A program made the position numbers and the translations under genes. This document shows positions 8,554 to 64,000 of a stretch of 64,000 nucleotides of DNA, piece by piece (positions within the stretch are counted from its first letter, which is position 1; every line of letters begins with the position of its first letter). The notes under the pieces were generated by a model. The model saw nothing but the letters and a program-made list of their open reading frames with translations, was not told the origin of the DNA and ran no database searches. This DNA comes from Candidatus Doudnabacteria bacterium. GTDB taxonomy: Bacteria; Patescibacteriota; JAQUNI01. Location of the stretch: positions 334-64,333 of the forward strand of contig JBAZQX010000008.1 in assembly GCA_041644975.1 (NCBI GenBank), read 5' to 3'.

Positions 8554-8569
8554 TTTACGCTTTTATATT

Positions 8570-29542: not shown

Positions 29543-29690
29543 ATTATAGCGTAAAAAAGAATCATTCCAAATCACCTGATATCTCGGGTATACCCTACCC
29601 TGCTACTCACTATATCTTGGAAATAAAAAAGAGGTCAAGTTTCAAGACCTGACCCCTATTTTCCTATCAGACATCTTTATTTAAACTAAT

Positions 29691-30805: not shown

Positions 30806-30811
30806 AAAACG

Positions 30812-30994: not shown

Positions 30995-30998
30995 TCCT

Positions 30999-33722: not shown

Positions 33723-34632
33723 ATCTCACTTTAATTCTGGATTGAGGACATTAAATCAAATGCGTAAAAATGGCATAAACCATAGTTCTGTGCCCGAATT
33801 TAAAATACCTAAAAAAACGAAACACGCTCTTTATATCGCTGATGCGTTAGGAATTTTAAAATCAATACCAGATAAATCTATCCAGCTAATTTTAATTGAC
33901 CCCCCATACAATCTTGATATTGCTACATGGGATACATTTAAAAATTATTTGGAATGGGCAAAGCTATGGTTAAACGAAAGCATTAGGGTTTTGAAAGATA
34001 GCGGCAATTTAGCCATCTTTGGAGGGATACAATACCAGGGAATACGCACTGGTGATTTATTAGAGCTTGTCCAGTATTTAAAAAAAGAAACAGATTTTAA
34101 ATTGGTAAATCTTATTATTTGGTATTACAAAAATGGGATGAGTGCTCACAGATTTTTTGCAAATAGGCACGAGGAGATAGCCTGGTTTGCGAAAACCAAT
34201 AAATATATTTTTGACCTTGATGCCGTAAGAATGCCATTTGATGAAAAAACAAAGAAGGCGTATTTAAAAGATAAAAGGCTAAATCCCAAAAGCATTGAAA
34301 AGGGTAAAAATCCTACAAACGTGTGGGAGATAGGACGCCTTAACGGTAATTCCCAAGAAAGAGTTGGGCATCCAACACAAAAACCAGCAGAGGTTGTAAG
34401 ACGATTGGTAAGAGGTCTTTCCTACCCAGATTCAATTGTTTTAGATTTTTTCGCAGGTTCTGGCACTACGGGGCGTGTTTGCATAGAAGAAAAACGTCAT
34501 AGTATTTTAGTTGATAACGACCCGAAGACAAAGAGTTACTTTAATAAACACCTTAAACAATTAAATGCCTCCAACAAAGGAACTTTTGAGATCCGGTTTA
34601 ATCCCAGTTTAAAAGATTTTTTAGAGCAATAA
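33712..34632 (+). CDS. N6-adenine/N4-cytosine DNA methyltransferase (beta class)
   Basis: Motif IV LILIDPPYN precedes motif I DFFAGSGTTG; the start overlaps the helicase stop by 11 bp. Confidence 0.8.
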   Translation: MPNKSHFNSGLRTLNQMRKNGINHSSVPEFKIPKKTKHALYIADALGILKSIPDKSIQLILIDPPYNLDIATWDTFKNYLEWAKLWLNESIRVLKDSGNLAIFGGIQYQGIRTGDLLELVQYLKKETDFKLVNLIIWYYKNGMSAHRFFANRHEEIAWFAKTNKYIFDLDAVRMPFDEKTKKAYLKDKRLNPKSIEKGKNPTNVWEIGRLNGNSQERVGHPTQKPAEVVRRLVRGLSYPDSIVLDFFAGSGTTGRVCIEEKRHSILVDNDPKTKSYFNKHLKQLNASNKGTFEIRFNPSLKDFLEQ

Positions 34633-34814
34633 TTATGAAAGCCATTATATTAGCCAGAGTTTCAACTGAAAAATAAATGAACAAAAAACAATCTAATCTG
34701 CCCAGTAAATGGGCCTTTTATTTTTAGTAGTGAGTAAGCACAACTTGAGGGATTATCGGTCAAAAGGCAATAAGACTACCAAAATAGGCAAAATTCAACG
34801 CATTTGTTGGACTT

Positions 34815-34855
34815 GTGTGGGGTTTTTCAGGGCTAAGATGGTATAATACTCAACT
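34815..34855 (+). promoter_or_regulatory. repeated promoter-like box with extended -10 (tggtataat), copy a
   Basis: gtgtggggtttttcagggctaagatggtataatactcaact, followed by an atggcaaaaagagg short ORF; a near-identical copy lies at 40571. Confidence 0.45.
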
Positions 34856-35015
34856 CTTCGAACCTGAAGGCTCTTTAGAGCCTAAATGGCTAATTAAAAA
34901 TATGGCAAAAAGAGGGCCAAAGAGGCAAAATCCAAATCCAACAAATCCAACAGTAATAAAAAGAGAATAAATAATATGACCTTTATATTTTCTTTTAAAT
35001 TTTTGATAGATTGTT

Positions 35016-35384
35016 TTAATCTTTTAATTCATCTTTTTGACGCAATCTTATTAGCAACACGCAAGGGACAGCGACAATTATCAAAATGACCTCCGTTAAA
35101 TCAATAGTGTATGCAGAAGATATTAGAAAACGAATTATACCAGCGATTATCGTGCTAATAATAATTGATTTGCGAGTAATTTCCTTCTTAGTGCATTTCT
35201 TCCAAATAAAAGTCAGAATTAATGATATGACAAATATTGCCGCAAATACACCTAAAAATTCTGCAACAAGTGCTATTTTTATCCCGTAGAAAGCAGCTCC
35301 GATTAGCACAGCGAAGGAGATGAGAATGAGACAAATTGTTTTAATTTTTTGGCTCATTTCGTTTAAATAAATTACGCACTCCAA
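35016..35384 (-). CDS. small membrane protein (122 aa)
   Basis: Three predicted TM helices. Confidence 0.4.
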   Translation of the reverse strand: MECVIYLNEMSQKIKTICLILISFAVLIGAAFYGIKIALVAEFLGVFAAIFVISLILTFIWKKCTKKEITRKSIIISTIIAGIIRFLISSAYTIDLTEVILIIVAVPCVLLIRLRQKDELKD

Positions 35385-35607
35385 GTTTCTTCTGGAGTTT
35401 TATGACAATATAGGCAGAGAGGGCCAAAAGAGATAAAGAAATTAGACAATCACTAGGAAGAACTTTAGTTAGGACAAGCCGTTCTATTCCAAGGAAAATT
35501 TTAATAAAAGAGTCAACGAAAAGTATAGCGAACCAAATTAAAACAATCCACAATATAACTTTTTTATTCTTTTGATTCATTTCTTTTAAATAAATTACGC
35601 ACGCCAA
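35341..35607 (-). CDS. small membrane protein (88 aa), tandem paralog
   Basis: About 75% identical to the next ORF, including IVIKLQKKLGVRNLFKRNE. Confidence 0.45.
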   Translation of the reverse strand: MACVIYLKEMNQKNKKVILWIVLIWFAILFVDSFIKIFLGIERLVLTKVLPSDCLISLSLLALSAYIVIKLQKKLGVRNLFKRNEPKN

Positions 35608-35800
35608 GTTTTTTCTGTAGTTTTATAACAATATAAGCAGAAAGGATCAAATAAAATAAAGAACTTAGGCAATTACTAGAAACTCCAGTTAGGACGAGCC
35701 GTAATACTCCAATGAAAAATTCAAAAAAAGAGTCAATAAAAAGTAAGGCAAAGCAAATTAAAACAATCCACAATATAATTTTTTTAACAGTTCCTTTCAT
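35564..35800 (-). CDS. small membrane protein (78 aa), tandem paralog
   Basis: Tandem duplicate; the DNA repeat is about 225 bp. Confidence 0.45.
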   Translation of the reverse strand: MKGTVKKIILWIVLICFALLFIDSFFEFFIGVLRLVLTGVSSNCLSSLFYLILSAYIVIKLQKKLGVRNLFKRNESKE

Positions 35801-35830
35801 TGGTATGAATTAAAATATTTTGGCAAATGA

Positions 35831-36031
35831 TTATTTCCCGAACTTAATCGTTCCACTGTGGTGTCGGTTCACCTGCCAATCTAAAAGAAAATAAATAAGA
35901 ATACCAAAAATACCGAACCCGGCAAGAAGTAATTTCTGGCCAATAGACATATAGCTTAAAATAGTAATGAGAATACCAACAAGGAAAACGGTTTCAATAA
36001 AGCATACTGTTTCAAGTGTAGATTTGGACAT
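35831..36031 (-). CDS. small membrane protein (66 aa)
   Basis: Two TM helices. Confidence 0.35.
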   Translation of the reverse strand: MSKSTLETVCFIETVFLVGILITILSYMSIGQKLLLAGFGIFGILIYFLLDWQVNRHHSGTIKFGK

Positions 36032-36049
36032 ATAATTTAATTAATTGTT

Positions 36050-36475
36050 TTAATTTTTTGGTTCATGGATTTTGGATTCCTTAGATAAATATTCAGATTT
36101 TTTTCTGTCAAAAAAACCACCAAACTTTAGCACGGTAAAAATAATAATCATAATAATTGCTTTAATTAAAGACCTATAATTACCTGTAGAGATATCTTCT
36201 ATGATCCAACGGATTAAAACCAAACTTATACTTAGAATGCTCAAAATAATTCCGAAAGTGGCTCCCCTTTCTTTGTCTCTTTTTGCAATTATACCTAATA
36301 TCAAAGCTATCAGTCCGAGTAAAAGACTGTATATAAAGAAACTTATTATCCCAATCGCAATAGAAAAAATATTAAACTTTTTTAGAAGCACATTTGTAAT
36401 ACGAAAATGCTTTACTATGATTAGAAATTCATCAAATATATCTTTCTCCTCTGATTTCTTATTTTTTTCTTTCAT
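36050..36475 (-). CDS. small membrane protein (141 aa)
   Basis: Three or four TM helices. Confidence 0.4.
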   Translation of the reverse strand: MKEKNKKSEEKDIFDEFLIIVKHFRITNVLLKKFNIFSIAIGIISFFIYSLLLGLIALILGIIAKRDKERGATFGIILSILSISLVLIRWIIEDISTGNYRSLIKAIIMIIIFTVLKFGGFFDRKKSEYLSKESKIHEPKN

Positions 36476-36494
36476 GGAGTTATTTATCTTTCAA

Positions 36495-36917
36495 TTAAAA
36501 ATATCTTTCCTTGTCCAGTTCCCTAACTTTTCCCCACTGTATAAAACCATTAATTATAAGCGAAGGTCCGGCAATAAACCCACCAATCCAAATGATAGGT
36601 ATTTGTGAATAAGATAAAGAGATAAGGGCCAATAAGGTAATAGCAATACCTCCTATTATTTTTGGCCAAGGGTTAAATGATTTTAATATTAATGGATGGT
36701 CACATCTTGTGCACTTTAAAATAAGACCTATACTCTGCTTTCCGTATAGAACCTTACAATATTCACAATATGGACGGGTGTATCGATTCATTTTTTTATA
36801 AAACACAAAGCTCCCCGCCAGCAATGGCTTTCGCCACCCATAACCCTTTCGGGATATGACCCATCGAAGAGTGCTCTGAACGAGGAGCTCTTTATCTTCG
36901 ATGGGGTTTTTTGCCAT
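36495..36917 (-). CDS. zinc-ribbon plus TM protein (140 aa)
   Basis: CEYC...CTRC followed by two TM helices. Confidence 0.4.
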   Translation of the reverse strand: MAKNPIEDKELLVQSTLRWVISRKGYGWRKPLLAGSFVFYKKMNRYTRPYCEYCKVLYGKQSIGLILKCTRCDHPLILKSFNPWPKIIGGIAITLLALISLSYSQIPIIWIGGFIAGPSLIINGFIQWGKVRELDKERYF

Positions 36918-37067
36918 ACCTCACAGACCAGCTACGAGGGTTAGGCAATTGGAATATTTAGTTTTTACAATTAAAGAATAACATAACCGAGAGGAAATTC
37001 AAGTCAAATCCTTGAAAAAGCGGTTAAAATAAGATAAATTTAAGAAAGAATTTAATGAAAATGTAAT

Positions 37068-38219
37068 ATGAAGATTGAAAAATTTTGTGAAGAAGTAAAT
37101 AGAAGCCCAGTCGGTATAAAGCATCTGAAAATAAAAGTTACGCCAGAGTTACTCAAAGAATGGAATTTTATTAAAGAAGATTACCAAATTAATGACCTCG
37201 CACCGCTATATGCTTTAAAGGAACAGCAAAAAGAACAACAACAAAGAAAAAAAATAGAAAGAAAAATAATGGAAGCTAATAAACTCACCTCAAAAGAAAC
37301 AGAAGTCTTTCAAGAAGTAACTAAGATTTTGTCAGCTGAAAGATCACTAAAATACAGAGGAAGAATATTAATAAATAAAACACCCTCGGGTTTCTCTCTT
37401 ATAACAACACTGAAATTTATCCCTACATTTAATCAGGTGGTCTCGGAAATAAGAGAGAAATACAAAATCAAGCCTAAACAGCTTTTAAAAGAGTTACAGA
37501 AGGTATTTCCTAAAAATAAAGAGCTGGTAAATGAAATCGTAGAGAATAAATATTCTTATCTTTTGGATCGAATACTCCACAAGTTACAGTATAAAGAAGA
37601 ATTTAATAGATTGGAATGGATTTTCTTGCTCTTACACTTAGAAGAGGATTGGCTTACTGGTATAGGAAAATGGCTTAAAGCAAGAAGAGAAATTGAAGAT
37701 TGGGAAAATAAAAAATTCCCTAATTTAAATAAAGAAATTAATGTCTCAAGACACACAACTTTAAAACTACCACGAGAGTATTTTAGAAGCCTAAAAAACT
37801 ATATCTTGTATGACGCGAAAGGAGAAATACTACACAAAGATTGGCAAACGTGGAGTAGAAACGAAATCGAGATAGAAACAATAGATTCTCCTGAGAAAGA
37901 AGTTGTATGTATTAAGAACTTTGAACCTTATATCAGAGTAAAAATTTATGGAGATACCAATATTTCTAAAATGAGAGCCTTATCGAAAGCCATTAAAAGA
38001 AGGCAAAAAGAATTGCCTGTCTACAAGGCAAGGGCTTTAATACAGAGCAACCCAGAGAAAAATCTTAAAAAAGCAATTTATTATTATTTAAGAAAAGGAA
38101 TGAGATTACCGCCGAAAAGAGCAAATATTCTATTATTAAAACTTAACTATAAGAAAGGAATTTCAATCCGAGCTGATAGTAGAGAAATTAAAAGATTTGA
38201 AGAATTTTTTGGAATTTAA
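37068..38219 (+). CDS. hypothetical protein (383 aa)
   Basis: Lys-rich ORF in the island; no motif. Confidence 0.45.
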   Translation: MKIEKFCEEVNRSPVGIKHLKIKVTPELLKEWNFIKEDYQINDLAPLYALKEQQKEQQQRKKIERKIMEANKLTSKETEVFQEVTKILSAERSLKYRGRILINKTPSGFSLITTLKFIPTFNQVVSEIREKYKIKPKQLLKELQKVFPKNKELVNEIVENKYSYLLDRILHKLQYKEEFNRLEWIFLLLHLEEDWLTGIGKWLKARREIEDWENKKFPNLNKEINVSRHTTLKLPREYFRSLKNYILYDAKGEILHKDWQTWSRNEIEIETIDSPEKEVVCIKNFEPYIRVKIYGDTNISKMRALSKAIKRRQKELPVYKARALIQSNPEKNLKKAIYYYLRKGMRLPPKRANILLLKLNYKKGISIRADSREIKRFEEFFGI

Positions 38220-38483
38220 ATTCAGTAAGGCAGTTATTTCAATTATATTACATCCACCATTTTGACATTTGGTTGGATGATTTGAGGTAATGGTAAAATA
38301 CTACAATTAGATAATTGTAGTTTTTTATTTCATGAGAAAGGAAAATTTTCAAATAAGAACCACCTCGTCTAATTTGCCTCAGAAAGAAAAACGCAAATTA
38401 TTACATCAAGTGTTTGATATTATTTTTAGCGCCAGAAAAAAAGAAAATAAAAAAATCACTTAATAAAGAGCAAAATATTCAAT

Positions 38484-38735
38484 ATGGAAAACAAAATGAA
38501 AAAACAATTTATAAATAGTGACTTTTATACTACGGCCTTTTTAATAGCTAAGGGTTATAAACTAATTAGGATGGATAAGTCCAATCCTCATCGATTTCGC
38601 TTTATCCTTGAAGATGAAAAGGATAGAGCGAAGTTACTCGAGGATTTTTTTAATTCCAAAACAAAAATTGAACCACGAAAGTTCGTCTCGGCAGTTAAAG
38701 AATTAAAATCTTTAATGTATTCCGACGCCATTTAA
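38484..38735 (+). CDS. hypothetical protein (83 aa)
   Basis: Short ORF immediately preceding the P-loop protein. Confidence 0.35.
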   Translation: MENKMKKQFINSDFYTTAFLIAKGYKLIRMDKSNPHRFRFILEDEKDRAKLLEDFFNSKTKIEPRKFVSAVKELKSLMYSDAI

Positions 38736-38755
38736 GGCTAAGGGAAAGATGAAAT

Positions 38756-40240
38756 ATGAAAAAAAATAAAGAAAACGCAAAGATAGAATTAAGACCGCCA
38801 ACTACAATTAATGAAACGCAAAATAGTAATCAATTGGAGGTATTTGATGGGGAGCTACTTCATCCTTCTCTTGATATAAAAGACGGGATTCTTGTCTTGG
38901 GTTTTCGCTATCGGTCAAAACCACAAGAGGAAAAGGAAATTTTTATTGTGGTCAATGAAGGTAATATCCAAATCACAGAGGAAAATTCCTTGAAAATAAA
39001 AGACAGACTCTATTATTTTGAAAAACGAAGCAGAAAACTTATGAGGATTGAAGAAAAATGGGGCATCTCGGCATTGCAACAATTTATTAAGAACTACAAC
39101 ACATTCAAATCAAAAGAAACTACAAAACCAGAGTTATTTACAGAAATCATCAGGCTCACTAACCGCTATGTGGAATTAGAAAAAGAAATAGATTATTACC
39201 TTCTAAGTGCGTGGATTTTGGGCACTTACTTTTATCCTATTTTTTATGCCTATCCATTTTTGCACATTAAAGCTCCAAAGCGGTCTGGTAAAAGCCAGTG
39301 CTTAAATATGCTTTCTCAACTCTGTTTCAATGCTACTAAGGCAAGACCAAGTCTAGCGGCATTAAGCGATACCGTTGATGCATTGCGGGGAACTTACTTG
39401 ATTGACCAAGCGGACGCTTTAGAAAGAAAGGGTAACGAAGAATTGTTAGATATTCTCGCCGACTCTTATAAAAAGAGTGGAGGCAAAAGGCGGGTTATTA
39501 ATTTTGACAAAAAAAAGGGCAGGGAGATTTTAGAGTTTGAAACCTACAGCCCAAAGGCGTTAGCCTCAATTAGAGAACTTCCAGAAGATTTACGAGACAG
39601 ATGTCTGGTTGTGCCTCTAATTAGAAGTCAAAAGAATTTCCCCGACCCAGACGACAATAACGAAAATTGGCGTGAGATAAGAGGCAGAATCTATAAAGTT
39701 TTAATACTAAATTACGACTGGATTAGCTCAATTTATAACACAAAAAAAACAATATACAGAAATAGTCAAGAAATTTTAGGCAGGAGTTTAGAATTATGGT
39801 TACCCTTTGAAATTATCTTGGAATGTTTTGGGATACAAGAAAAAACAGAGGAAGCAAAAAAGCGTTTCCTCTCCCAATATGGTTTTAGCGAATACGAGCC
39901 ATCGGAATTAGAAGAAGAGGTTATTAAGGTAATCTTGAATCAATTACAAAATAAATCGGAGGCGATTTTAACTCCTAAAGAAATAAGCGGGCTGATATGT
40001 GCCGAGGTATTTTTATTAAACGACACTCCCAAGCAAAAAGCGGCTAAGGTGGGGTGGGCAATTAAAAAATTTAATCTCTCTTCAGAAAAGAAACCTAGAA
40101 GTAAAGATGGAGTGCGATATCTGTTTGAAAAAAATAAGATAGCAGGAATCTACCAGAGCTACTTCAAAACAGATACAGAACCTACATCTCTTACACCAAA
40201 TGATTCTTATGGCTTAAATAGCGAACAAATGACGGTGTAA
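38756..40240 (+). CDS. P-loop NTPase, possible replication/primase-associated protein of the element
   Basis: Walker A APKRSGKS and a Walker-B-like TYLIDQAD in the central region; 494 aa. Confidence 0.4.
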   Translation: MKKNKENAKIELRPPTTINETQNSNQLEVFDGELLHPSLDIKDGILVLGFRYRSKPQEEKEIFIVVNEGNIQITEENSLKIKDRLYYFEKRSRKLMRIEEKWGISALQQFIKNYNTFKSKETTKPELFTEIIRLTNRYVELEKEIDYYLLSAWILGTYFYPIFYAYPFLHIKAPKRSGKSQCLNMLSQLCFNATKARPSLAALSDTVDALRGTYLIDQADALERKGNEELLDILADSYKKSGGKRRVINFDKKKGREILEFETYSPKALASIRELPEDLRDRCLVVPLIRSQKNFPDPDDNNENWREIRGRIYKVLILNYDWISSIYNTKKTIYRNSQEILGRSLELWLPFEIILECFGIQEKTEEAKKRFLSQYGFSEYEPSELEEEVIKVILNQLQNKSEAILTPKEISGLICAEVFLLNDTPKQKAAKVGWAIKKFNLSSEKKPRSKDGVRYLFEKNKIAGIYQSYFKTDTEPTSLTPNDSYGLNSEQMTV

Positions 40241-40570
40241 GAGTTTAGTGTAAGAGTTTGGTGGTGTATGTCTTTCTTACACTAAACATTTCCTACACCA
40301 AAGACCTACACCTTGTTTAATCCTTTATTCAAGCCAAAAAAGAGTATCAGTGTAAGAGATGTAAGATGGGGATGGAATAGACACCAATAAAAAATAAGAT
40401 AAAAATGCACAAATCTGGTTAGGAGATTTTGCTGCTGACAGAGGATATGATAAAAAACAATTAGAAAGATTCGCAAAGAAGAACGAGAAATTTTGTCTTA
40501 CCTTAAAAAAAGCAAAAAAAATTAAAGGAAGGCTAAGTTTTAAGGACCACCAAAGCAACCAGAATCGGTT

Positions 40571-40610
40571 GTGTGGGGTTTTCAGGGCTAAGACGGTATA
40601 ATACTCAACT
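40571..40610 (+). promoter_or_regulatory. repeated promoter-like box with extended -10, copy b
   Basis: gtgtggggttttcagggctaagacggtataatactcaact followed by atggcaaaaagagg and the 40644 ORF. Confidence 0.45.
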
Positions 40611-40643
40611 AATCAAAACTATGGCAAAAAGAGGCAAAAAATT

Positions 40644-41126
40644 ATGAAAAAGAAAGGTAACAAAGGTAACACTATAAAAAAGAGAATAACCCAAGAAAAA
40701 GCCAATTTTCTAGATGCTTATAAAAAACAGTGGACTATCAGCGGGGCGGCTAAGGCAATCAGAAGGAGTAGAAAACAGTGCCATCATTGGCTTAGAAAAG
40801 ATAAAAAATTTAGAGAACAGTTTAAGGAAATCAAATTAGAACATATTGATTACACAGTGACTAAATTAGTGGAATTAATTTCGTATGGGAATTTAGGAGC
40901 GATAATCTATTTCCTAAAGTGCCAAAGCAAAAAGTGGAGGCCGTGGGAGAAAAGAGAAATTAGCGGAACTCTTAAACCTGAAGTTGAGCAAAAAATAAGC
41001 ACCGACCCGATTCTTAAAAAAGCAGTAAGATTTTACGAAGAAGAGCTAAAAAATGAGATTATAAAAAAAACCAAAAAAATTAAAGAGTTTGAAAACACAA
41101 AAAGTTATCTACTTAAAAGAGCTTGA
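40644..41126 (+). CDS. basic helix-turn-helix-like protein (160 aa)
   Basis: WTISGAAKAIRRSRKQCHHWLRK suggests an HTH; function unknown. Confidence 0.4.
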   Translation: MKKKGNKGNTIKKRITQEKANFLDAYKKQWTISGAAKAIRRSRKQCHHWLRKDKKFREQFKEIKLEHIDYTVTKLVELISYGNLGAIIYFLKCQSKKWRPWEKREISGTLKPEVEQKISTDPILKKAVRFYEEELKNEIIKKTKKIKEFENTKSYLLKRA

Positions 41127-41406
41127 CTTGTTTTCTGGATAGCGCCATTCTTGTGTTGAGGAACCTATCAGACATATACAACGGTCATGGCTGGACTAAT
41201 CAGCCGCTAAAAGAGGCTCAGGTGATTAGTCCACCCGAGTCTCTTTTAATAAAAGCCAAGCTAAAAATTAGTTACAAACTAAACGACCCCGCCGTGAAGC
41301 AAAGAGTCGCTTAGTAAAAACGGTCACCAATGGTCTATACAACCATTAGCGTCCAATTATTTTATAGCAATAACTAAGAACTCTTGCAAGCAAGAGGGGA
41401 ATAAAC

Positions 41407-43080
41407 ATGACAAAAACATCAACTATCACCTATCCTCCCGTTATCGGAGGACAATCACCCCTAACAAAAACGAAGCGAGCGGCAACCTACATCAGATGTT
41501 CCTCTGATGAAGCAAAAAAAGAAGGCTATAGCCCGGAAACTCAAGAAGAAAAATCAAAGGAACTTATAAAAAATTTTGGATGGCAGCTTAATAAAAATCA
41601 CATTTATCTTGATATTGGATTCTCGGGTAGCACCGATAAACGACCTGAATTACAACGATTATTAAGAGATGCAGAAAATAAAGAATTTGATGTTGTGGTT
41701 GTTTATAGAATGGATAGATTTTTCAGAAACCTCAGATTATTACTAAATACTGTCGGAGAACTAAAGGAACTTGGAATAGAATTTAAATCTGTCACCGAAC
41801 CATTTGATACTTCAACCCCTACTGGTAGGGCAATGTTCGCAAACGCAGGAGTATTTGCGGAATGGATGAGAGAGGTGGGGTTGGAGGCGAGGAACGAAGG
41901 CATGATAAAAGCAATGAAAGAAGGAAAATGGTTGGGAGGGACTCCTCCATACGGTTACAAGTTAAATAATGACAAACATAAATTAGAGATTGACGAAGAA
42001 GAAACCCCAATAATTAAAATGCTCTTCGGGTGGCTTGTAGATGAAAAGTTAAGCGAATATAAAATTCAGCAAAAAATAAACGCAATGAAGATTCCTACTA
42101 AATATGACAGATTAGGAAGAGAAAAGAAAACAAAGAGTAAATGTTGGTGGAACCGAAGAGTTATAGGAAGAATATTAAGAAGCGAAATCTATACAGGAAC
42201 ATTCTACTATAGAAGATATAAATATCCTGGAAGAGTAAAAGGAGAAAATAATTTAAGACCAAAAGAGGAATGGATTAGGGTTGAAGATAAAAATCTCAAA
42301 ATCATTCCCCGAGAGTTCTTTGAAAAAGCCCAACAGCAATTGAAAAAGAATAAAGAGTTATCACCTAGAAACACTAAGCAGATTTATACGCTCCAACATA
42401 AAATCATCTGTGGTCTTGATGGTTATTATTATCAGTGTGCGACGAGACATTATTCTAATAAATTTGGCCACGGAGAAACTAAATACTATTTCTGCTCAGG
42501 AATTAGGCCCTGTTTTACTCCCAAACGATGTTCTGCTCCAAGTGTAAGCGAATCACGGATTCTTCCTCCTGTATGGAAAAAACTCAAAGAAATTCTCACT
42601 GATCCAGAAGTTATAATGCGAGAGCTTAGAGATTACCTCAAACGGAAAAATAAGAAAAACCAAATTCACAAACAATTAAATGATATCAAAAACACTCTGA
42701 GTTCTTTGAATGCAAAACGAGAGAGATATGCTGAGCTTTATGCCGAAGGCTCTATTAATAAAGAGTTCTATGATAAAAAGACACAAGAATGCAAAAAAGA
42801 GGTGGAAAGATTAAAAAAAGAAGAAGAAAAACTCTCCCAGCTCTTACTTACCGAAGAAGAAAAACAAAAACGAATAAAATCTGTAGAAAATCTCTATCAC
42901 GAATTGAAAGAAAGCCTTAAAAGTGTTACATATGAAGTGAAAAGGGAAATTCTCCAGCGTTTAGTGGAAAAAATAGTCAAAACTGATAACAGGTTAGACA
43001 TAGAATTTAATATACCGTTTACCGAAAGTTCTCTAAAACCAGCCTCTGAATGTTTGACGGACAGCAGAAGAATTTATTGA
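41407..43080 (+). CDS. large serine recombinase (integrase)
   Basis: N-terminal resolvase domain YIRCSSDEAKKEGYSPETQ with catalytic Ser, a recombinase domain, Cys-rich zinc ribbon and coiled-coil C-terminus; 557 aa; the stop lies at the insertion junction. Confidence 0.85.
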   Translation: MTKTSTITYPPVIGGQSPLTKTKRAATYIRCSSDEAKKEGYSPETQEEKSKELIKNFGWQLNKNHIYLDIGFSGSTDKRPELQRLLRDAENKEFDVVVVYRMDRFFRNLRLLLNTVGELKELGIEFKSVTEPFDTSTPTGRAMFANAGVFAEWMREVGLEARNEGMIKAMKEGKWLGGTPPYGYKLNNDKHKLEIDEEETPIIKMLFGWLVDEKLSEYKIQQKINAMKIPTKYDRLGREKKTKSKCWWNRRVIGRILRSEIYTGTFYYRRYKYPGRVKGENNLRPKEEWIRVEDKNLKIIPREFFEKAQQQLKKNKELSPRNTKQIYTLQHKIICGLDGYYYQCATRHYSNKFGHGETKYYFCSGIRPCFTPKRCSAPSVSESRILPPVWKKLKEILTDPEVIMRELRDYLKRKNKKNQIHKQLNDIKNTLSSLNAKRERYAELYAEGSINKEFYDKKTQECKKEVERLKKEEEKLSQLLLTEEEKQKRIKSVENLYHELKESLKSVTYEVKREILQRLVEKIVKTDNRLDIEFNIPFTESSLKPASECLTDSRRIY

Positions 43081-44032
43081 AATCTATAATCCCGGTCCCG
43101 CAGAAATTGATTTAACAAATTGGCAAATTGATGACCAGGAAAATAAAGGCTCGCATCCTTATACTTTTCCAGAAAATTTTATCATCAAGAGAGGGGAGTA
43201 TATTACTCTCCCCTATTCTCAAACTAAAATTTCGCTGAATAACAACGACGACTGGGTCAGGCTCCTATGGCCTGATGGACAAGCCATTGACGAGGTTTCG
43301 TATTCCGATCCCCCTGAAGGCGAATCATACAATAAAACCAACAACGGCTGGCGCTGGAGCTGCGCCGCCACGCCAGGCGAACCGAACAAAATCGCATCTA
43401 ATGATGAATGCGCCGCATCGCCAGAGGAAGAAACCAAGAATTATTCGCGCGCTCTCTGGATCAATGAATTTTTACCTGATCCAAAAGGCAAAGATGAAGA
43501 AGGCGAATTTATTGAATTGCAAAATCGGGGCGAAGAAGAAATTGATTTAACTGATTGGCAGATTGATGATTGTGAAAATACTGGCTCCAAGCCGCACACT
43601 TTTCCCGAAAATACTAAAATTAAAACTAATTCTTATCTCGTCCTTTACTACAGAGAAACTAAAATATCTTTAAACAACAACGGCGATTGCGTGCGGCTTC
43701 TGAACCCCTCAAGTCAGGCAGTTGACGAAATTAAATATGGCAAAGCCAAAGAAGGACAATCTTACAGCCGCCAAAATGTGGATCATTGGCAATGGGGAAA
43801 ACCCACACCAGGCAAAGACAATGAATTTACCCAAATTTTAGCCGCAAAAAATAGTATAACGAAGAATAATCAACCTCCTGCAACCACTCCTAAACGTCAA
43901 ACTTTACCCCAAACCGGACCAAATATATATTTTTATTTCTCCCTTATCTTCCTATTTTTCTTTCTTTTTTCTTTGACAAAAATTAAAAAATATTATAAAA
44001 ATAGAAGTTGCTCCTTTATCAAATCTGCTTGA
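43058..44032 (+). CDS. LTD protein, 3' portion of the interrupted gene (no own start codon)
   Basis: The frame is open from 43058. EEFIEIYNPGPAEIDLTNWQIDD and a second LTD repeat (GEFIELQNRGEEEIDLTDWQIDD), then a C-terminal TM anchor. Confidence 0.6.
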   Translation, partial: RTAEEFIEIYNPGPAEIDLTNWQIDDQENKGSHPYTFPENFIIKRGEYITLPYSQTKISLNNNDDWVRLLWPDGQAIDEVSYSDPPEGESYNKTNNGWRWSCAATPGEPNKIASNDECAASPEEETKNYSRALWINEFLPDPKGKDEEGEFIELQNRGEEEIDLTDWQIDDCENTGSKPHTFPENTKIKTNSYLVLYYRETKISLNNNGDCVRLLNPSSQAVDEIKYGKAKEGQSYSRQNVDHWQWGKPTPGKDNEFTQILAAKNSITKNNQPPATTPKRQTLPQTGPNIYFYFSLIFLFFFLFSLTKIKKYYKNRSCSFIKSA

Positions 44033-51224: not shown

Positions 51225-52682
51225 ATGGCTATCCGTGTTACCAACCTCCAAGGCTTGAAAGCAGTATTTCAAACTATCAAAAAACCGATTGTTGGCATCG
51301 GCGTAACTGCTTTTAATCGTACTGGTTTGGAAGATATCGTCCCAAACTACAAGATAGTCTGCCTAAGATATAGCTTAGACACGCCAGCGATTGAAAAAGA
51401 CATTTCTGTTTATTCCTTGGAACGAGGCAGACCGACAAAACATCTGAAATGCAATCGCAACGCTACTTCTATTATTTTGAACCGCCGTACCCAAAAGTAT
51501 TTTAAAAAACTGCCGGAGAAACCAGCCCTGCTCTTTTACAAAACTACTGACAAGATTATGGCGGAATCCAAAAAACATGGCTGGACCGTGCTTAATAATT
51601 CACCGGAATTTGGCAAAAAAAGCTTGGAAAACAAAGTTTATTTCCGAGATATTTTAAAAAAATGCGATATTGACTTAATCCCCGGTGAAACTGATAATCT
51701 TTCAAAAATAGATTTTGACACGCTTAATAAAAAATATGGCCCGCGTTTTGTAATCCAGCTTCCTGATCGCGGCGGCGGAAAAGGAACCTTTTTTATTAAT
51801 AATAAAGAGGATTATGATAATTTTATTAACCACAGCCGCGTGCAGGAATATGAAACCCCGCCCGAAGTTGTGATTACGAAATTTATCCACGGTCCATCCC
51901 CTAGCCTAACCGGTTGCGTAACCAGGGAAGGAGTTATTTCAACTGGACTCCAATTTCAACTCCTGGACATACCTGAACTCTGGAATCTCAAAAAAGGTTC
52001 TGGTTTATTCTCTGGACATGATTGGACGCAGGCAGTATTTAATGAAAAGGTTCAAAGACAAGCCAACATAATCGCGGAAAAAATCGGTTCTCATCTCTCT
52101 GGCCTGCGTTATAAAGGAATCTTTGGTTTGGATATGCTCCTTGATAAAGAAACCGAAAAGCTTTATGTCGTGGAATGCAATCCTCGCCTTCTAGGCTCTT
52201 TCCCCTGCCTTCCTATGGTCCAAATTACTAATGGAGAACCACCGCTTTTGGGATTCCACGTCTTAGAATTTTTAAGGGCTAATTACCGCGTTGATATTGA
52301 TAAGGTCAATCGCAATATCCGCCGACCGAAAATTGGCAGCCAGATGATCCTGCACAACCTCCTTTATAAATGGGCGGAAAACAAAAAGGAGATAGCAGCC
52401 GGGGTTTATAAGTATCAAAATGGAAAATTTATTTTTGAACGAGAAGGCTATCATTACAAACATCTAAAAACCAAAGACGAATTTCTAATTGCTGATGGCG
52501 TGCCTATTCTCAATTCTAAACTCACGCCCAATCAGAGATTATTCCGCGTTTTAGCTCTGCGTGGCGTGCTGGATTTAAGAACCAATAAACTCAACGAATG
52601 GGGGCATGACGTCGCGCAATGGGTTTACAGACAACTAAACATCACGCCTCTGCATGAACAGCCCGAAATGATTGATGATTAA
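51225..52682 (+). CDS. second ATP-grasp family protein
   Basis: GIFGLDMLLDKETEKLYVVECNPRLLGSF resembles an ATP-grasp C-terminal subdomain. Confidence 0.5.
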   Translation: MAIRVTNLQGLKAVFQTIKKPIVGIGVTAFNRTGLEDIVPNYKIVCLRYSLDTPAIEKDISVYSLERGRPTKHLKCNRNATSIILNRRTQKYFKKLPEKPALLFYKTTDKIMAESKKHGWTVLNNSPEFGKKSLENKVYFRDILKKCDIDLIPGETDNLSKIDFDTLNKKYGPRFVIQLPDRGGGKGTFFINNKEDYDNFINHSRVQEYETPPEVVITKFIHGPSPSLTGCVTREGVISTGLQFQLLDIPELWNLKKGSGLFSGHDWTQAVFNEKVQRQANIIAEKIGSHLSGLRYKGIFGLDMLLDKETEKLYVVECNPRLLGSFPCLPMVQITNGEPPLLGFHVLEFLRANYRVDIDKVNRNIRRPKIGSQMILHNLLYKWAENKKEIAAGVYKYQNGKFIFEREGYHYKHLKTKDEFLIADGVPILNSKLTPNQRLFRVLALRGVLDLRTNKLNEWGHDVAQWVYRQLNITPLHEQPEMIDD

Positions 52683-52687
52683 GTAAA

Positions 52688-52909
52688 CCTTGAATTACGA
52701 AATTCATTTTGTCGTTGCGAGGAGGACCTTTAGTCAGATCCCTCGCTTCCGCTCGGGACAGGCTCCGCAATCTCATTAAGCGATATTTATGCCTAATTTA
52801 GGAGATTGCCTGCCCGCCATCGCTTCGCTTCAGGCGAGGCGGGCGGGCTTCGGTCTCCGCTTGAAGAGCGAATCCCTCGCTAATAGACAATACATTCCGT
52901 AATTCAAGG
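52688..52909. mobile_element. Family B MITE-like element (222 bp) with 16-bp terminal inverted repeats ccttgaattacgaaat / attccgtaattcaagg
   Basis: The TIRs were read directly. The internal GC-rich hairpin cctgcccgccatcgcttcgcttcaggcgaggcgggcggg recurs at 15463 and, in diverged form, at 57440. Confidence 0.6.
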
Positions 52910-52955
52910 TAAATAAACCCCATTTCAAAAAATCAATTAACTGATTTTAAAAACA

Positions 52956-53981
52956 ATGAATCTTAAGAGAGAAGGCGTAATTTTAAAGCCCTCCAAGCAA
53001 AAACATGAAACTGTGGCTGTTTTAAACCCTGCTGTAGTCCAGACGGGAAATACTCTAGAGATGTTTTATCGGGCAGTCCAAAAAGACAATTATTCTACAA
53101 TCGGCTATTGCGTTCTGGAAGGTCCATTGAAAGTGGCAGAAAGAGCGACGGAACCTATCTTGCGTCCAGAATATGATTATGAAAAACAAGGCGTGGAGGA
53201 TCCCCGCATCGTTAATATTGAAGACACTTATTATCTAACCTACACAGCCTTTGACGGAAAGAATGCTAGGATTGCTTACGCGGAAAGCAAAAATTTAAAA
53301 GAATGGAAAAAGAGGGGTATTATTTCGCCCCAATTAACCTATGATAAAGCCGAGGATCTTTTTAGAAAATCCAGCTATAATCTTAAAGAAAAATATTTTT
53401 TCTTTGAATCTTATTATAAAGATAAAGCAGGTCCCGATGTTATCCTCTGGGAAAAAGACGCCCTTCTTTTCCCTAAAAAAATCAACGGAAAGTTTGCATT
53501 AATCCACCGCATTCTGCCGGGTATGCAAATTATTTTCTTTGATCGCTTTGAACAATTAATGGATAAAAAATATTGGGAGCATTACCTAAAAAAATTGGGT
53601 GAATATGTTATTCTAGAACCAAAATATGCTTTTGAATCCCGCAATATTGGCGGTGGCGCGCCGCCTTTGGAAACTGACGCTGGCTGGCTTTTGATTTACC
53701 ACGCCGTGGAAGATTCTAGCTACGGCAAAATTTATCACGCCGCAGCGGCATTACTTGACAAACAGAACCCGCTAAAAGTAATCGGCAGGCTGGATTATCC
53801 TTTGTTCTCACCAGAGACGGACTATGAAAAATCTGGCAATGTGAACAACATCATTTTTCCGACTGATACTGCCCTTTTTGACGATCGCTTGTATATTTAT
53901 TATGGCGCCGCCGATCAAGTCATTGCCGCTGTTTCTTTAAATTTAAATGAACTTTTGGTGGAATTATTGCGCAATACTTGA
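52956..53981 (+). CDS. GH130/DUF377-family glycosidase or phosphorylase-like protein
   Basis: AVLNPAVVQ...YRAV... and GVEDPRIV..DTYYLTYTAFDG beta-propeller motifs. Confidence 0.65.
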   Translation: MNLKREGVILKPSKQKHETVAVLNPAVVQTGNTLEMFYRAVQKDNYSTIGYCVLEGPLKVAERATEPILRPEYDYEKQGVEDPRIVNIEDTYYLTYTAFDGKNARIAYAESKNLKEWKKRGIISPQLTYDKAEDLFRKSSYNLKEKYFFFESYYKDKAGPDVILWEKDALLFPKKINGKFALIHRILPGMQIIFFDRFEQLMDKKYWEHYLKKLGEYVILEPKYAFESRNIGGGAPPLETDAGWLLIYHAVEDSSYGKIYHAAAALLDKQNPLKVIGRLDYPLFSPETDYEKSGNVNNIIFPTDTALFDDRLYIYYGAADQVIAAVSLNLNELLVELLRNT

Positions 53982-57265: not shown

Positions 57266-57380
57266 AAATCAAAAAATTTAAAGCTGGATTTTGAAAACAT
57301 CAATCCGCAATGAAAAATTGCGGATTTTTAATTTCTCCCCCTTGGTAAGGGGGAGTCAGAGGGGGTCTTTAGATATCAAA

Positions 57381-57480
57381 CTTGAATTACGAAATGTATT
57401 GTCTATTAGTGAGGGAGGCATCTGATGCCGACCGAATCCCGCCCGCCTCGCCTGAAGTGCAAGCACTTGAGCGGGCAGGC
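57381..57480. repeat. Family B element, second (inverted, partial, diverged) copy
   Basis: cttgaattacgaaatgtattgtctattagtgaggga matches the reverse complement of 52870-52909; shares cccgcccgcctcgcctgaag...gcgggcagg. Confidence 0.55.
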
Positions 57481-57938: not shown

Positions 57939-58197
57939 ATGCTTGCAACTTATAACTTGAAAACTTGTAACTCAAGAAATATCCCTTGAATTGCGATCTT
58001 CAAGTATTTTATTTTTAATATTAGGATTTACGCGTTTGTCATCCTGTTTATTATAATTGTCATCCCTGAAACAAGTTCAGCAAGACAATCGTATCTGTCA
58101 TCTCTTCAGAGTCTGAAGACTCTTCGGAGTCTGAACGACCTGAATTTATTTCAGGATCTCTTCTACAGGATTTCCTCTAAAGAATGAAGATGCTGAA

Positions 58198-58252
58198 ACA
58201 AGCCATGGCACTGAGCGAAGCGAATGTGTTCAGCAAGACAATCGTATCTGTC
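58198..58252. repeat. 55-bp exact repeat (gaagatgctgaaacaagccatggcactgagcgaagcgaatgtgttcagcaagaca), copy 1, Family C hairpin
   Basis: Identical to 60650-60704. Confidence 0.7.
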
Positions 58253-58349
58253 ATCCTGAATTCATTTCAGGATCTAACTATGAAGATGCTGAAATGAATT
58301 CAGCAAGACATTGAAATGACAAATTTTTAAGACAAACGCGTAAGTCCTA

Positions 58350-59681: not shown

Positions 59682-60517
59682 TAATGCTTCAAGCGGGATG
59701 CTTCTGGTTTAGATGGTTCTTCGGGCCTCAAAAATGGGGGGATTAAAGGTTTTAGAATTTCCGGCACCCTTGCCAAGAAGGGTTTGGTTGGCTTTTCGGG
59801 TTTTTCTACCTCTTCTTGGGGCTTACCTTCTTTGGGCTTGGGTTTAAAAATGGAAGGGATTTTGGGTTTTAAAGGTTCGGGAATCTTCTTAATCAGTTCT
59901 TTAAATAAATCCAAAGGCCGCGCATCAGAAGGATGAGCATCGGAACTCACGACATCTAAAGATGGTGCGGAGGCGGAAGGCCGAGCGCTTTTTGGCCGAT
60001 AATCGGTTTTAACCTTGTAATCTACTGTGCCGCAAGAGCTGGTCGTCGCGCAATTAAAAATAATCCAACCAATATTCTCGCCCCAAGCGTAGCCAGAAAA
60101 TTCCCCAGTGGAGCCAATGGAAACTCCGCCGTGGTCGGGATTAAAATTAATCCAGCCCACATTCTCGCCCCAAGCGTAACCCGAGAGATTGCCGTTGTCA
60201 TCATTTGCCACTTTGTAATCAACCGTAGCACAAGAACTGTCGTTAGAGCAATTCAAAAAAATCCAACCCATATTTTCCGACCAAGCATAGCCTGTCAAAC
60301 CGGAATCCGTGATATGCACATTGCCCTCGGTGGCGCCAAAATTAATCCAACCAGCATTTTCGCTCCAGGCGTATTTGTCCGCCGCGTCTATTGTGCCTTC
60401 GTTTATAGACGCCAAAACTGGCAAAGCAAAAGCTAGGCCTATGATAAAGCTTAAAAATAGAAAAGTATTTTTTGTTTTAAACATCATATTTGTCATCCTA
60501 AATTCTGTAATTGTCAT
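59681..60517 (-). CDS. secreted repeat protein (four GYAWxENxGWI(N/I)F repeats) with a Pro/Lys-rich tail
   Basis: Signal peptide; repeated YAWSENAGWINF / YAWGENVGWINF / YAWGENIGWIIF. Confidence 0.5.
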   Translation of the reverse strand: MTITEFRMTNMMFKTKNTFLFLSFIIGLAFALPVLASINEGTIDAADKYAWSENAGWINFGATEGNVHITDSGLTGYAWSENMGWIFLNCSNDSSCATVDYKVANDDNGNLSGYAWGENVGWINFNPDHGGVSIGSTGEFSGYAWGENIGWIIFNCATTSSCGTVDYKVKTDYRPKSARPSASAPSLDVVSSDAHPSDARPLDLFKELIKKIPEPLKPKIPSIFKPKPKEGKPQEEVEKPEKPTKPFLARVPEILKPLIPPFLRPEEPSKPEASRLKH

Positions 60518-60649
60518 CCTGAACTTGTTTCAGGATCTCCTCTTAAAGATGAAGATGCTGAAATGAATTCAGCAAGACATCGTTTTGTCATCCTGAATCC
60601 TGGCCTGTCGCCAGGACAGGCTTATTTCAGGATCTTCTTATTTAAAATG

Positions 60650-60832: not shown

Positions 60833-62200
<1,368 letters not shown>

Positions 62201-62374
62201 CATTGTTGTTATTGAAGTTGGAACAGGCGTTATTGCCAGCTATCCGCGCATTGTTGTTGTTGTTCTGCTCGGAGAGCCACTCCCAAAGCTTTTGCCCCTT
62301 TGCTTTTCTAAAACCGCAAGCTATCTTTTATGCAAAGTAAGCTGTTTTTCAAATATCCTCCTTTGCTCAATGTC

Positions 62375-62437
62375 TGTCTTGCTGAATTTATTTCAGCATC
62401 TCCAAGGATTAGATCCTGAAACAAGTTCAGGAAGACA
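62375..62437. repeat. Family C hairpin pair (tgtcttgctgaatttatttcagcatc + gatcctgaaacaagttcaggaagaca) between TR and avd
   Basis: The same two-hairpin module recurs at 62978-63045. Confidence 0.6.
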
Positions 62438-62573
62438 TACCAATTCAGGATGGCAAACATGTGAGTCATCTAAACCTAAAAATGGCAAAGGAGGGAAAAG
62501 GGCTAAATTCCCCTTACTGCTCTCTTCTCAAACCCATAGGCTTGAAAACTCTGGCAGGAACAGAAAAACAAAA

Positions 62574-62963
62574 TTATTGCTTTGCCCATTTCTGCCAACC
62601 GCCAATCTGGCGGCCAATATCTTCAATTTGTTTGTTAATAATTTCCAGCTTTCCCGAGCTGATAATTTTTAAATCAAAAGCCAAACGAGTATGAATTCTT
62701 AAGGTTTCCAATCGGTTGTCCAATTTTTGCAAAAGTTCAAACTTTTTATCCGCGCTGTTTGCCAATACAATCAAGTCCAATAACTCCGCGCTAATTACTT
62801 TTAATTTTTCGCCCAAGGTATATTTATACTCTTTTTGAAAATTGGTTGTGGTTTTGTAAATTTCCAAAGTCAAAAGGTAAGCTGATTGAAAAATTGCAAT
62901 ATGATGATATTGAGCCATTTTATTTAAACCTAGGACTTCCGCGTTTGACTCCAGATTTGTCAT
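62574..62963 (-). CDS. avd: DGR accessory variability determinant (Avd)-like four-helix-bundle protein
   Basis: 129 aa; the pattern LETLRIHTRLAFDLKIIS...IEDIGRQIGGWQK parallels the Bordetella phage Avd C-terminus (LAMLRFWLRFLAG...IAEVGRILGSWI); lies between TR and VR. Confidence 0.65.
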   Translation of the reverse strand: MTNLESNAEVLGLNKMAQYHHIAIFQSAYLLTLEIYKTTTNFQKEYKYTLGEKLKVISAELLDLIVLANSADKKFELLQKLDNRLETLRIHTRLAFDLKIISSGKLEIINKQIEDIGRQIGGWQKWAKQ

Positions 62964-62977
62964 TCCAGCCTTTCAAA

Positions 62978-63045
62978 TGTCTTGCTGAATTCATTTCAGC
63001 ATCTTCATTTTTTTGAGGAGATCCTGAACTAAATTCAGGATGACA
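62978..63045. repeat. Family C hairpin pair located 60-130 nt 3' of the VR (in coding sense)
   Basis: tgtcttgctgaattcatttcagcatc and gatcctgaactaaattcaggatgaca. Confidence 0.6.
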
Positions 63046-63100
63046 GAATAAGAATGAACAAATGATTCAAATCATAAAATAATCAAATCAAACATAAGAG

Positions 63101-63234
63101 GGAATTATGGGCGGAAAACGGCACGAAATCGATAGCTACCGTAGACATAGTCGATATCGAAGTTGGAACAGGCGTAATGGCCAGCTACCCGCGCATGGCT
63201 GTAGATGAGCTGCTCGGAGAGCCACTCCCAAAGG
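63101..63234 (-). other. DGR variable repeat (VR) at the 3' end of the target gene
   Basis: Covers the last 42 codons up to the stop at 63105-63107; differs from the TR only at TR-adenine positions. Confidence 0.8.
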
Positions 63235-64000
63235 GGGCTATTAGACAAATCCATATATTCATCGTTCGGGGCGGCGTTAGCGCCACGACCGGCATTGCCG
63301 CCGTAATTGCCAATAGTTTTACTAGACGAAGCTCCTGAAGAATGATAAGCGCTATCGCCGGCAGTACCATCAGCATCGCCGCTAGTAGCGCCGCAAAATC
63401 CAAAAAAATCATTACTGGTTGGCAATCTTGTTCCTTTCCAATTTTTTAGAATCTCTGGCGTGATTGGACCGCCAACACCTGTTATGGCCTCGCTTGGCGT
63501 GGTGTATCCTCCTTGACCAGGTAAATCCTTTTGGCCGTCATAACAATCTGCTTGACACAAAGCGCAATCTCCGTTGTCAAAAGTAGTATCGGCGGCGCAG
63601 GCGGCATCAATGCCACTATAGTTGCCAACAGTCCCACTGGGAAAACTGCCGGAGCAGGTATATGCGGCAATATAAGAATTATCTCGTTTGGTTGCACAAA
63701 AATCTCCATTCCATGAGCCAGCAGTGCCGGCTGTTGTTTTAACACACACTCCATCTTCAGGATCTATAGCATCACCGTCGCCATTGCCGTCTTCAAACCA
63801 ATACCAACCGTTGGCGTTTTGGGCATCGCAGGTTTCTTTCGTGATTGTGGGTGTGCCCGTCCACTCTGTGCCTGGATAACCTGAATAGGCGCCGGTTTGC
63901 GAAACCCCAAAGCTCGTGCCCTGCTTGACCGTGCTGGTGGATAAACTGGCGGCGTTGTAAGTGCCAGTATAAGCGGCTGTGGTTAAAACCTTGGCCGCGC
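63105..64000 (-). CDS. DGR target protein, 3' portion (the gene continues beyond the window end); GC-rich, Gly/Thr/Ser-rich with a C-terminal lectin/FGE-like variable region
   Basis: The reading frame is open from the window edge to the stop at 63105. The C-terminus ...SPLWEWLSEQ..YRFRAVFRP is encoded by the VR. The ORF-track start at 63749 is a GTG artefact. Confidence 0.75.
   Translation of the reverse strand, partial: AAKVLTTAAYTGTYNAASLSTSTVKQGTSFGVSQTGAYSGYPGTEWTGTPTITKETCDAQNANGWYWFEDGNGDGDAIDPEDGVCVKTTAGTAGSWNGDFCATKRDNSYIAAYTCSGSFPSGTVGNYSGIDAACAADTTFDNGDCALCQADCYDGQKDLPGQGGYTTPSEAITGVGGPITPEILKNWKGTRLPTSNDFFGFCGATSGDADGTAGDSAYHSSGASSSKTIGNYGGNAGRGANAAPNDEYMDLSNSPLWEWLSEQLIYSHARVAGHYACSNFDIDYVYGSYRFRAVFRP

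Follow-up and report, generated by a model that had tools for sequence, protein, structure and literature searches.

The 64,000-nt window analysed here, a stretch of Candidatus Doudnabacteria DNA, probably harbors two nested selfish layers: a lineage-restricted MITE and, within it, a hairpin module (HP) that also moves alone as an exact unit lacking a TSD, mobilised in trans via the folded hairpin. Each layer is shown to be an insertion, and HP goes in as a discrete unit that leaves no TSD. The MITE alone is of a routine, familiar kind. Few units as short as HP have a precise, independent insertion documented by filled and empty sites; in two phyla HP alters proteins in-frame, and its cross-phylum distribution is unusually wide. 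The window corresponds to contig k141_31134 (191,576 bp) of ENA ERZ27249422, judging from a 21,026-bp locus that aligns with 42956-63980 at a single mismatch; its proteins bear the NCBI name Candidatus Doudnabacteria, a lineage of Patescibacteria/CPR.

The 222-bp element and its truncated copy

The outer layer occupies positions 52688-52909 of the plus strand, where a non-coding element of 222 bp lies between an ATP-grasp gene (51225-52682) and a GH130 gene (52956-53981); no ORF of at least 80 aa overlaps it, and neither a promoter nor a terminator was predicted within it. The left TIR (52688-52703, plus strand) is CCTTGAATTACGAAAT and the right TIR (52894-52909) reads CCTTGAATTACGGAAT on the minus strand, such that these 16-bp termini agree at 15 of 16 positions and an imperfect inverted repeat (78%) extends out to 36 nt, reaching 52722 on the left side. 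Folding of the 222-nt element yields a rod-like structure with free energies of −94 kcal/mol (plus strand) and −102 kcal/mol (minus strand), compared to about −64 kcal/mol for shuffled sequences (z = −6.2 and −8.0, respectively). An 8-bp TSD, overlooked in the original prediction, brackets the element as TAAGTAAA at 52680-52687 and TAAATAAA at 52910-52917, the two copies being separated by one later substitution. The left copy includes the TAA stop codon of the ATP-grasp gene, which is now supplied by this TSD copy, and the window reads gatgatTAAGTAAA, then the 222 bp, then TAAATAAACCCC.

For an empty-site comparison, we used contigs that code for proteins closely related to the GH130 protein downstream of the element. 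Two of them (L121, GH130 95% identical; L118, 93%) have an empty site in which gatgatTAAATAAACCCC is uninterrupted; both read gatgatTAAATAAACCCCATTT, with one copy of TAAATAAA and an ATP-grasp-to-GH130 gap of only 43-44 nt. At two further loci (L119 and L120, GH130 91%) the MITE is present at the identical site, and both contigs break within the element. Because close relatives have the empty site, 52688-52909 is a genuine MITE-type insertion. The original prediction of a MITE with 16-bp TIRs is therefore borne out, its termini matching with one mismatch and being joined by a TSD and by empty sites in relatives. Loci L122 (GH130 83%) and L124 carry a related inverted truncated element in the equivalent intergenic region, with another GC hairpin at the matching position. 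An exact metagenome-wide scan with the right TIR returned three loci only, namely L122, L124 and a solo TIR-like 22-mer (L125) that adjoins an ORF read by eye as a P-loop ATPase, and for this reason the TIR family is regarded as rare and lineage-restricted. A BLAST search of PLSDB plasmids with the element gave no match; a single TIR match in IMG/VR was taken as chance, as was an INPHARED BLAST match to one phage genome (two records, E = 0.2).

The window contains one full and one truncated copy of the MITE. The latter had been proposed as an inverted, diverged partial copy at 57381-57480, and it was indeed found on the minus strand, with bounds of 57380-57480, at a distance of 4.5 kb from the full element. 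It has approximately 100 nt in common with the right end of the MITE, from the one TIR that it retains (57380-57395) through 25 subterminal bases to the GC hairpin, and then diverges; its small stem is substituted and its hairpin is an HP variant. Three distinct small stems, cgcttgaagagcg, ccgccttgggcgg and ggcatcagatgcc, are observed at one position beside the right TIR. In an empty-site search for the truncated copy, the DNA of relatives at the 57380 site was found to diverge past the ROK terminator.

How would such an element have moved? TIRs together with an 8-bp TSD are the hallmark of cut-and-paste transposition and point to a trans-acting transposase of that class, such that the MITE would be a deletion-derivative-like form of a cut-and-paste (DDE-type) IS that inserted at the ATP-grasp stop codon and was mobilised in trans. 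Target duplications of 8 bp are made by the ISL3, IS256, IS66 and IS6 families. No transposase gene bounded by the TIR of the MITE was found within the window. Bacterial MITEs such as Correia, ERIC, Chunjie and Nezha have been reviewed (PMC10969869), and the 222-bp element resembles them in being small and non-coding (below ~500 bp), in its TIRs, TSD and rod-like fold, in its truncated derivatives and in its variable presence among close relatives. It differs from them in that no cognate IS was found, its copy number looks low and lineage-restricted, and it carries an internal mobile module. As an observation on the neighboring gene, the GH130 protein has, beyond its close homologs (at least 73% identity), many best matches (60-66%) among DPANN and Asgard archaea, and these matches hint at an inter-domain transfer of the sugar-metabolism cluster to which it belongs.

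The hairpin module and its copy within a protein gene

HP consists, in order, of CCTGCCCGCC, ATCG, a variable stem-loop, TTCAGGCGA and GGCGGGCGGG. The copy in the MITE (52809-52847, plus strand) is a 39-nt GC-rich imperfect palindrome, CCTGCCCGCCATCGCTTCGCTTCAGGCGAGGCGGGCGGG, that scores 55.3 bits (E 2e-9) with the covariance model R1 and folds as DNA with −15.3 kcal/mol (z −3.9). The DNA folds of HP are stable. Their outer stem measures 10 bp and always contains the T.G; a bulged A and a TCG/CGA extension come next, then a variable inner stem-loop, and the 3' side has the bulge TTCAGG. Across an alignment of 25 variants 95% of cells pair, five of the six inner-stem pairs change on both sides (CGAGCC/GGCTCG, TCCCGC/GCGGGA, AAGTGC/GCACTT), and the covariation score was reached by none of 500 shuffles. 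The truncated MITE copy has the variant with the inner stem AAGTGC/GCACTT (57438-57479, minus strand, 42 nt; R1 44 bits, E 4.6e-7). Exactly three strong copies and two weak relatives (11771-11797 and 12014-12045) were identified by the covariance model in the window, and weak matches only in 78 kb of related Doudnabacteria loci; CCTGCCCGCC with at most one mismatch occurs 12 times in the window against 1.96 expected by chance. The HP region of the MITE is reproduced in an independent Logan assembly, and two Logan contigs (L002 and L119) end inside HP, as is expected because HP is a repeat.

The third strong copy lies within a gene (14311-17037, plus strand) whose frame is intact and whose 908-aa product has a polytopic membrane N-terminal part, a variable low-complexity linker and C-terminal TPR repeats (Pfam TPR families). 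This copy (15463-15501, plus strand, 39 nt; R1 55.3 bits) is identical to 52809-52847 at 39 of 39 positions between unrelated flanks, and it adds 13 in-frame codons that are translated as PARHRFASGEAGG. Among the ten closest homologs this peptide is unique to the window protein, and it is absent from P0002-P0010 (59-94% identity): the 94% ortholog (P0002, on the 722-kb contig of GCA_028717685.1) reads REYL^FG(I) and the 91% ortholog (P0003) reads RESL^PG(T), where the caret marks the insertion point, and the corresponding gap in the DNA measures 39 nt exactly (L003, L006). A transmembrane helix ends directly before the insertion point, and a length-variable, indel-rich low-complexity region begins there.

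The original prediction had described here a 45-bp piece, identical at 44 of 45 positions, that added 15 aa. An insertion in this ORF is what was found, and the translation is as given there, but the unit is 39 bp, the longer match having taken in TTCGG after a 1-nt indel, and only 13 aa are inserted, since the L before and the FG after are native to the host protein. The view that this was a recent intragenic insertion tolerated in a loop or linker agrees with the closest orthologs, which lack exactly these codons, and the ortholog alignment suggested alongside it makes the insert lineage-specific, nine homologs being without it. What had been read as a fragment of the MITE is instead a separate module, HP, which the MITE also carries and which is far more widespread than the MITE.

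The junction of the gene insert can be parsed in two ways. One parse sets the entire hairpin, CCT...GGG, between CTT and TTC. The other takes GCCC...GGGTTC as the insert, with CCT before it and GGA after it; the pre-insertion site (CTTCCT^GGAACA) is then identical to that of L006, and the homology to a MITE-type donor amounts to 3-4 nt (CCT/G) at one junction and 1-2 nt (G) at the other. CCT(G) precedes the gene insert, and TTCGG follows its HP as it does in both MITE copies after a 1-nt spacer. Under either parse the insertion is judged to be lineage-specific, in-frame and recent, the last because it is identical to the MITE's copy of HP. HP has entered the gene of this TPR membrane protein in-frame, and its variable linker tolerates the insert. 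Could the 13 codons be ancestral and lost in the relatives, or be an assembly artefact? The exact protein is found on one contig only and the linker region is rich in indels; nevertheless, we regard this explanation as extremely improbable, given that the nine homologs of 59-94% identity all lack the insert, that a repeat copy at a distance of 37 kb matches the insert at 100%, that the insert has 77% GC in a genome of 39% GC, and that the HP region of the MITE recurs in the independent Logan assembly.

Hairpins with cctgcccgcc beside the tRNA-Glu gene had also been considered related, and this applies to one of the two. The hairpin at 11771-11797 (minus strand, 27 nt, an outer stem with a 6-nt loop; R1 22.5 bits, E 0.016), located just upstream of tRNA-Glu, is absent from the sister genome, where the alignment with L003 has a gap, and on this comparison it appears as a minimal, lineage-specific relative of HP. 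The hairpin at 12014-12045 bears no sign of insertion and was ruled out as a mobile copy of HP, since the sister genome shares it as part of a conserved block of ~180 nt. This block (11925-12105), downstream of tRNA-Glu, is almost identical to L003 5605-5785 while the surrounding intergenic DNA has diverged; it has no Rfam match and is a candidate conserved non-coding RNA. The window also contains a separate family of double-hairpin repeats (CCCCGTTAGAAAT...GGGGTTAGAGAACGA.GTTCTCTAACGGGG) with 91-95% identity at 8495-8558, 10335-10398 and 19762-19825, and partial ones at 17112-17175 and 21040-21077, all between the listed ORFs.

Copies of the module in other genomes

A scan of a genome collection (one genome per GTDB species) with TTCAGGCGAGGCGGGCRGG returned at least 99 loci, and in approximately 75 of the 99 listed the HP unit (37-48 nt) is placed between unrelated flanks with similarity ending sharply on both sides. 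Because the search pattern prescribed the 3' half of HP, invariance of that half is ascertainment, such that the independent evidence comes from the sharp boundaries, the conserved 5' half and the architecture; a search started from nothing but the 5' arm gave 90 copies, of which 67 had the canonical 3' half and most of the others were nested or expanded. The commonest form is 41 nt long, and the forms of 37, 39, 40, 42, 45 and 48 nt differ in the inner stem-loop only. Among the matches listed, the hosts are mostly Desulfobacterota (Desulfobacterales, Syntrophobacterales and others), with closed chromosomes as well as many MAGs, and the exact 39-nt variant of the window is found with AT-rich flanks in a Saccharibacteria MAG (L012, L051). 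Several contigs labelled outside Desulfobacterota and CPR have flanks in common with Desulfobacterota contigs and may represent binning errors; the labels on HP-bearing contigs include Nitrospinaceae, Armatimonadota, Clostridia and an archaeon. In IMG/VR, HP is present in three contig families.

The near-identity of HP in tiny-genome CPR bacteria and in Desulfobacterota would imply that this non-coding element spreads horizontally and passes from one phylum to the other by horizontal transfer. Should direct DNA traffic lie behind the sharing, HP could be a sign of a physical association of episymbiont and host and could point to a structure-specific mobilising enzyme. HP could also serve to trace DNA exchange for organisms whose hosts are mostly unknown. 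It has further practical consequences, in that it breaks short-read assemblies, where contigs end inside it, and adds spurious peptide segments to predicted proteins. Literature searches with GGCGAGGCGGGCGGG and CCTGCCCGCC returned no relevant paper and no published description of HP, and neither MITEs of Patescibacteria nor palindromic repeats of Desulfobacter-type genomes turned up as a subject in the literature searched.

Copies of HP nest within one another at one fixed point, between CCTGCCCGCCA and TCG (CCA^TCG), with boundaries that cannot be shifted (L009, L016, L017, L021, L086). A Desulfobacteraceae MAG (L017, 2163-2235) encodes a hybrid histidine kinase with a 39-nt HP that holds a 33-nt HP in the linker joining its HATPase and receiver domains; the resulting 72 nt form 24 in-frame codons for ATCPPQSGVGRRVASAQARRAGLP. 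The insert is missing from all 93 checkable homologs of this kinase, which read YLP^RAEGD; the junction is ambiguous over the shared motif CTGCCC. The empty state is known at two HP sites, where the inserts measure exactly 39 and 72 nt and no TSD is present. Such nested mosaics would arise by entry of HP into the same point of other HP copies, and within genes only copies of a length divisible by three would persist.

A possible objection is that HP is a minimal deletion derivative of a TIR transposon, with its 10-14-bp arms (CCTGCCCGCCATCG / CGAGGCGGGCGGG) being the TIRs of an IS of Desulfobacterota. The outer arms do enclose longer inner segments of variable content, 73 nt in L058 (at 5035) and approximately 110 nt in L020 (7555), L022 (570) and L047, as this explanation would predict. 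However, it is unlikely, since no TSD accompanies the exact 39- and 72-nt inserts at the two known empty sites, anchored TSDs of at least 3 nt flank 9% of copies versus 4% of controls (no signal, and mostly one expanded family), and no element combining these ends with a transposase gene was found in ~700 kb of loci. The long inner segments at the four loci hold further HP copies and build BIME-like mosaics that adjoin 8-nt tandem repeats. The excess of direct repeats in HP flanks derives from the intergenic mosaics around HP, which are rich in such 8-nt tandem repeats. All-vs-all clustering of 2,079 ORFs from the loci gave housekeeping families only, with no protein family recurring beside HP.

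Is HP then a functional structured motif, such as an RNA stabiliser, a terminator or a protein-binding site, that is maintained by selection and spreads as a by-product? Its conserved architecture, covarying inner stem, conserved T.G (G.U in RNA) and conserved bulge would all be in keeping with a function, as would the three different small stems that share one position beside the right TIR of the MITE. On the other side, HP shows no orientation bias relative to flanking genes (11 vs 14), which suggests that it is selfish rather than sense-specific in function; there is no T-run and no terminator or promoter call. Rfam at gathering thresholds over the whole window returned nothing on HP or the MITE, nor did Rfam at E values up to 10 over the element and the tRNA-Glu region, where the best hit within 52600-53000 was GA-cis at 21.8 bits against a threshold of 34.7, off HP. 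Copies of HP are moreover located inside genes and within other HP copies, and close relatives differ in whether they have HP. Taken together, these observations make selection for a function a decidedly improbable explanation, and the selfish reading of HP is preferred.

Mobilisation of the module and relation to known repeats

A fundamental question is how does a 39-nt unit insert itself with exact boundaries? One hypothesis is that an enzyme acting in trans would recognise HP as a folded single strand, following a 'peel and paste' logic like that of REP/RAYT or IS200/IS605 systems. Recognition of the folded strand is weakly favored because the boundaries are exact, TSDs are lacking, the imperfections are conserved, the inner stem covaries, and HP targets itself at a structural junction.

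A serious rival is that HP is copied without any dedicated enzyme, by replication template switching or by microhomology-primed short-patch gene conversion that transfers the hairpin with a few flanking bases. Stable hairpins are hot spots for template switching. Both intragenic HP events show junction microhomology, which fits template switching as well as transposition: the pre-insertion site in the window reconstructs as CTTCCT^GGAACA, identical to L006, with an insert of GCCCGCC...GGGTTC and homology to a MITE-type donor in which HP is followed by TTCGG, and the L017 junction is ambiguous over CTGCCC. Against this rival, homology between flank and HP end is marginal across 37 independent flank families (2.08 of 7 matches versus a background of ~1.7), the nested copies are exact, unshiftable and all at one point, and a near-identical, otherwise unconstrained 5' half in two phyla would be hard to keep without a recognition constraint. 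Template switching is consequently a possible explanation that we nonetheless doubt, and recognition of the folded strand by a trans-acting enzyme is retained as the working model. The flanks of HP show only a weak preference for a purine at −1 (83%) and T at +1 (45%), the 5' flank otherwise not being conserved, and neither an extension of the stem nor pairing into the flanks was observed.

The window holds a Y1 (HUH) transposase gene at 24409-24855, which was considered as the mobiliser of HP and rejected, the protein being an ordinary IS200-type TnpA whose own end hairpins (CCGCAGCAGAGCTGCGG) are unrelated to HP. This gene (minus strand; Y1_Tnp E 7e-36, NCBIfam transpos_IS200 140 bits) belongs to an IS200/IS605-type element at 24381-24963 that is flanked by direct copies of a hairpin-containing 33-mer (24381-24413 and 24931-24963).

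Among described repeats, REP/REPIN-RAYT systems (PMC3733652) resemble HP in their short (20-40-nt class), GC-rich, imperfect palindromes, which are high-copy, mostly extragenic and occasionally in genes, form mosaics and lack TSDs. In REPs, one end bears a conserved GTAG or CGTC tag that stays unpaired (PMC3733652), whereas no such tag appears in the flank profiles of HP and GTAG abuts one copy only (L049). REP families are also lineage-specific, while HP is nearly identical in two phyla, and no RAYT was found in the window, where the Y1 protein scores 25.7 bits on the RAYT model (cutoff 80) and 140 bits on NF033573. Palindrome-associated elements derived from IS200/IS605 share with HP the insertion without a TSD, seen here in the exact 39- and 72-nt inserts, but they have a fixed 4-5-nt 5' target and distinct left and right hairpins, whereas HP is a single hairpin whose left flank is defined only by the purine at −1.

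The Rickettsia palindromic elements (RPEs), in published accounts (PMC10969869, PMC3733652), are palindromic repeats placed in-frame in functional protein genes and translated as extra peptides, as is HP. By the length described in these accounts, RPEs of ~100-150 bp, confined to Rickettsia, are set apart from HP with its 37-48 nt and cross-phylum distribution. The yeast mitochondrial GC clusters, such as GC42 (PMC4478555), likewise form GC-rich hairpins of ~40 nt with constrained stems and variable loops, and their units merge or nest and are exchanged horizontally; they sit in an AT-rich genome, and their transposition mechanism is unresolved. They are, however, mitochondrial and have a putative AG target duplication (PMC4478555), while HP is bacterial and lacks a TSD. 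The palindromic amphipathic repeat coding elements (PARCELs, PMC2996958), which are coding, are similar to HP in being palindromic and horizontally distributed among distant microbes. HP differs from PARCELs in being mainly intergenic and in occurring as single units. PARCELs themselves are longer, repeat in tandem within genes and encode amphipathic peptides. In its behavior HP is comparable to REPs, RPEs and yeast mitochondrial GC clusters, but it belongs to none of them. We tentatively raise the possibility, in which our confidence is limited, that HP represents an undescribed class of ultra-small (37-48 nt), TSD-less hairpin transposable elements that target themselves at CCA^TCG, are translatable and are exchanged between Patescibacteria and Desulfobacterota.

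Other mobile features were observed in the window. A low-GC island (0.31-0.37) at about 24000-43100 splits an LTD-domain gene (22524-23735 / 43517-44032) and encodes a large serine recombinase (41407-43080), a ResIII/HNH helicase (30999-33722), an N6/N4 DNA methylase (33712-34632) and a LOOT RNA (36823-36947, 96.8 bits); it looks like an integrated mobile element, because the flanking genes lie close together, island-free, in the sister locus L003. A complete diversity-generating retroelement (DGR) is present at 60833-63749, with a reverse transcriptase gene at 60833-62200 (plus strand) and bAvd at 62574-62963 (minus strand). Its template repeat (62156-62288) and the variable repeat (63101-63233), located at the 3' end of the minus-strand ORF 63105-63749, differ exclusively by T-to-N changes on the plus strand (17 of 17), which corresponds to adenine-specific change on the minus strand. 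Hairpin repeats of the form TGTC[A/T]T[C/G]CTGAA...TTCAG... cluster around the DGR (58065-58312, 60507-60580, 62375-62437 and 62973-63047), including a 69-nt inverted pair with 91% identity, and these repeats near the DGR genes may be a DGR accessory structure.
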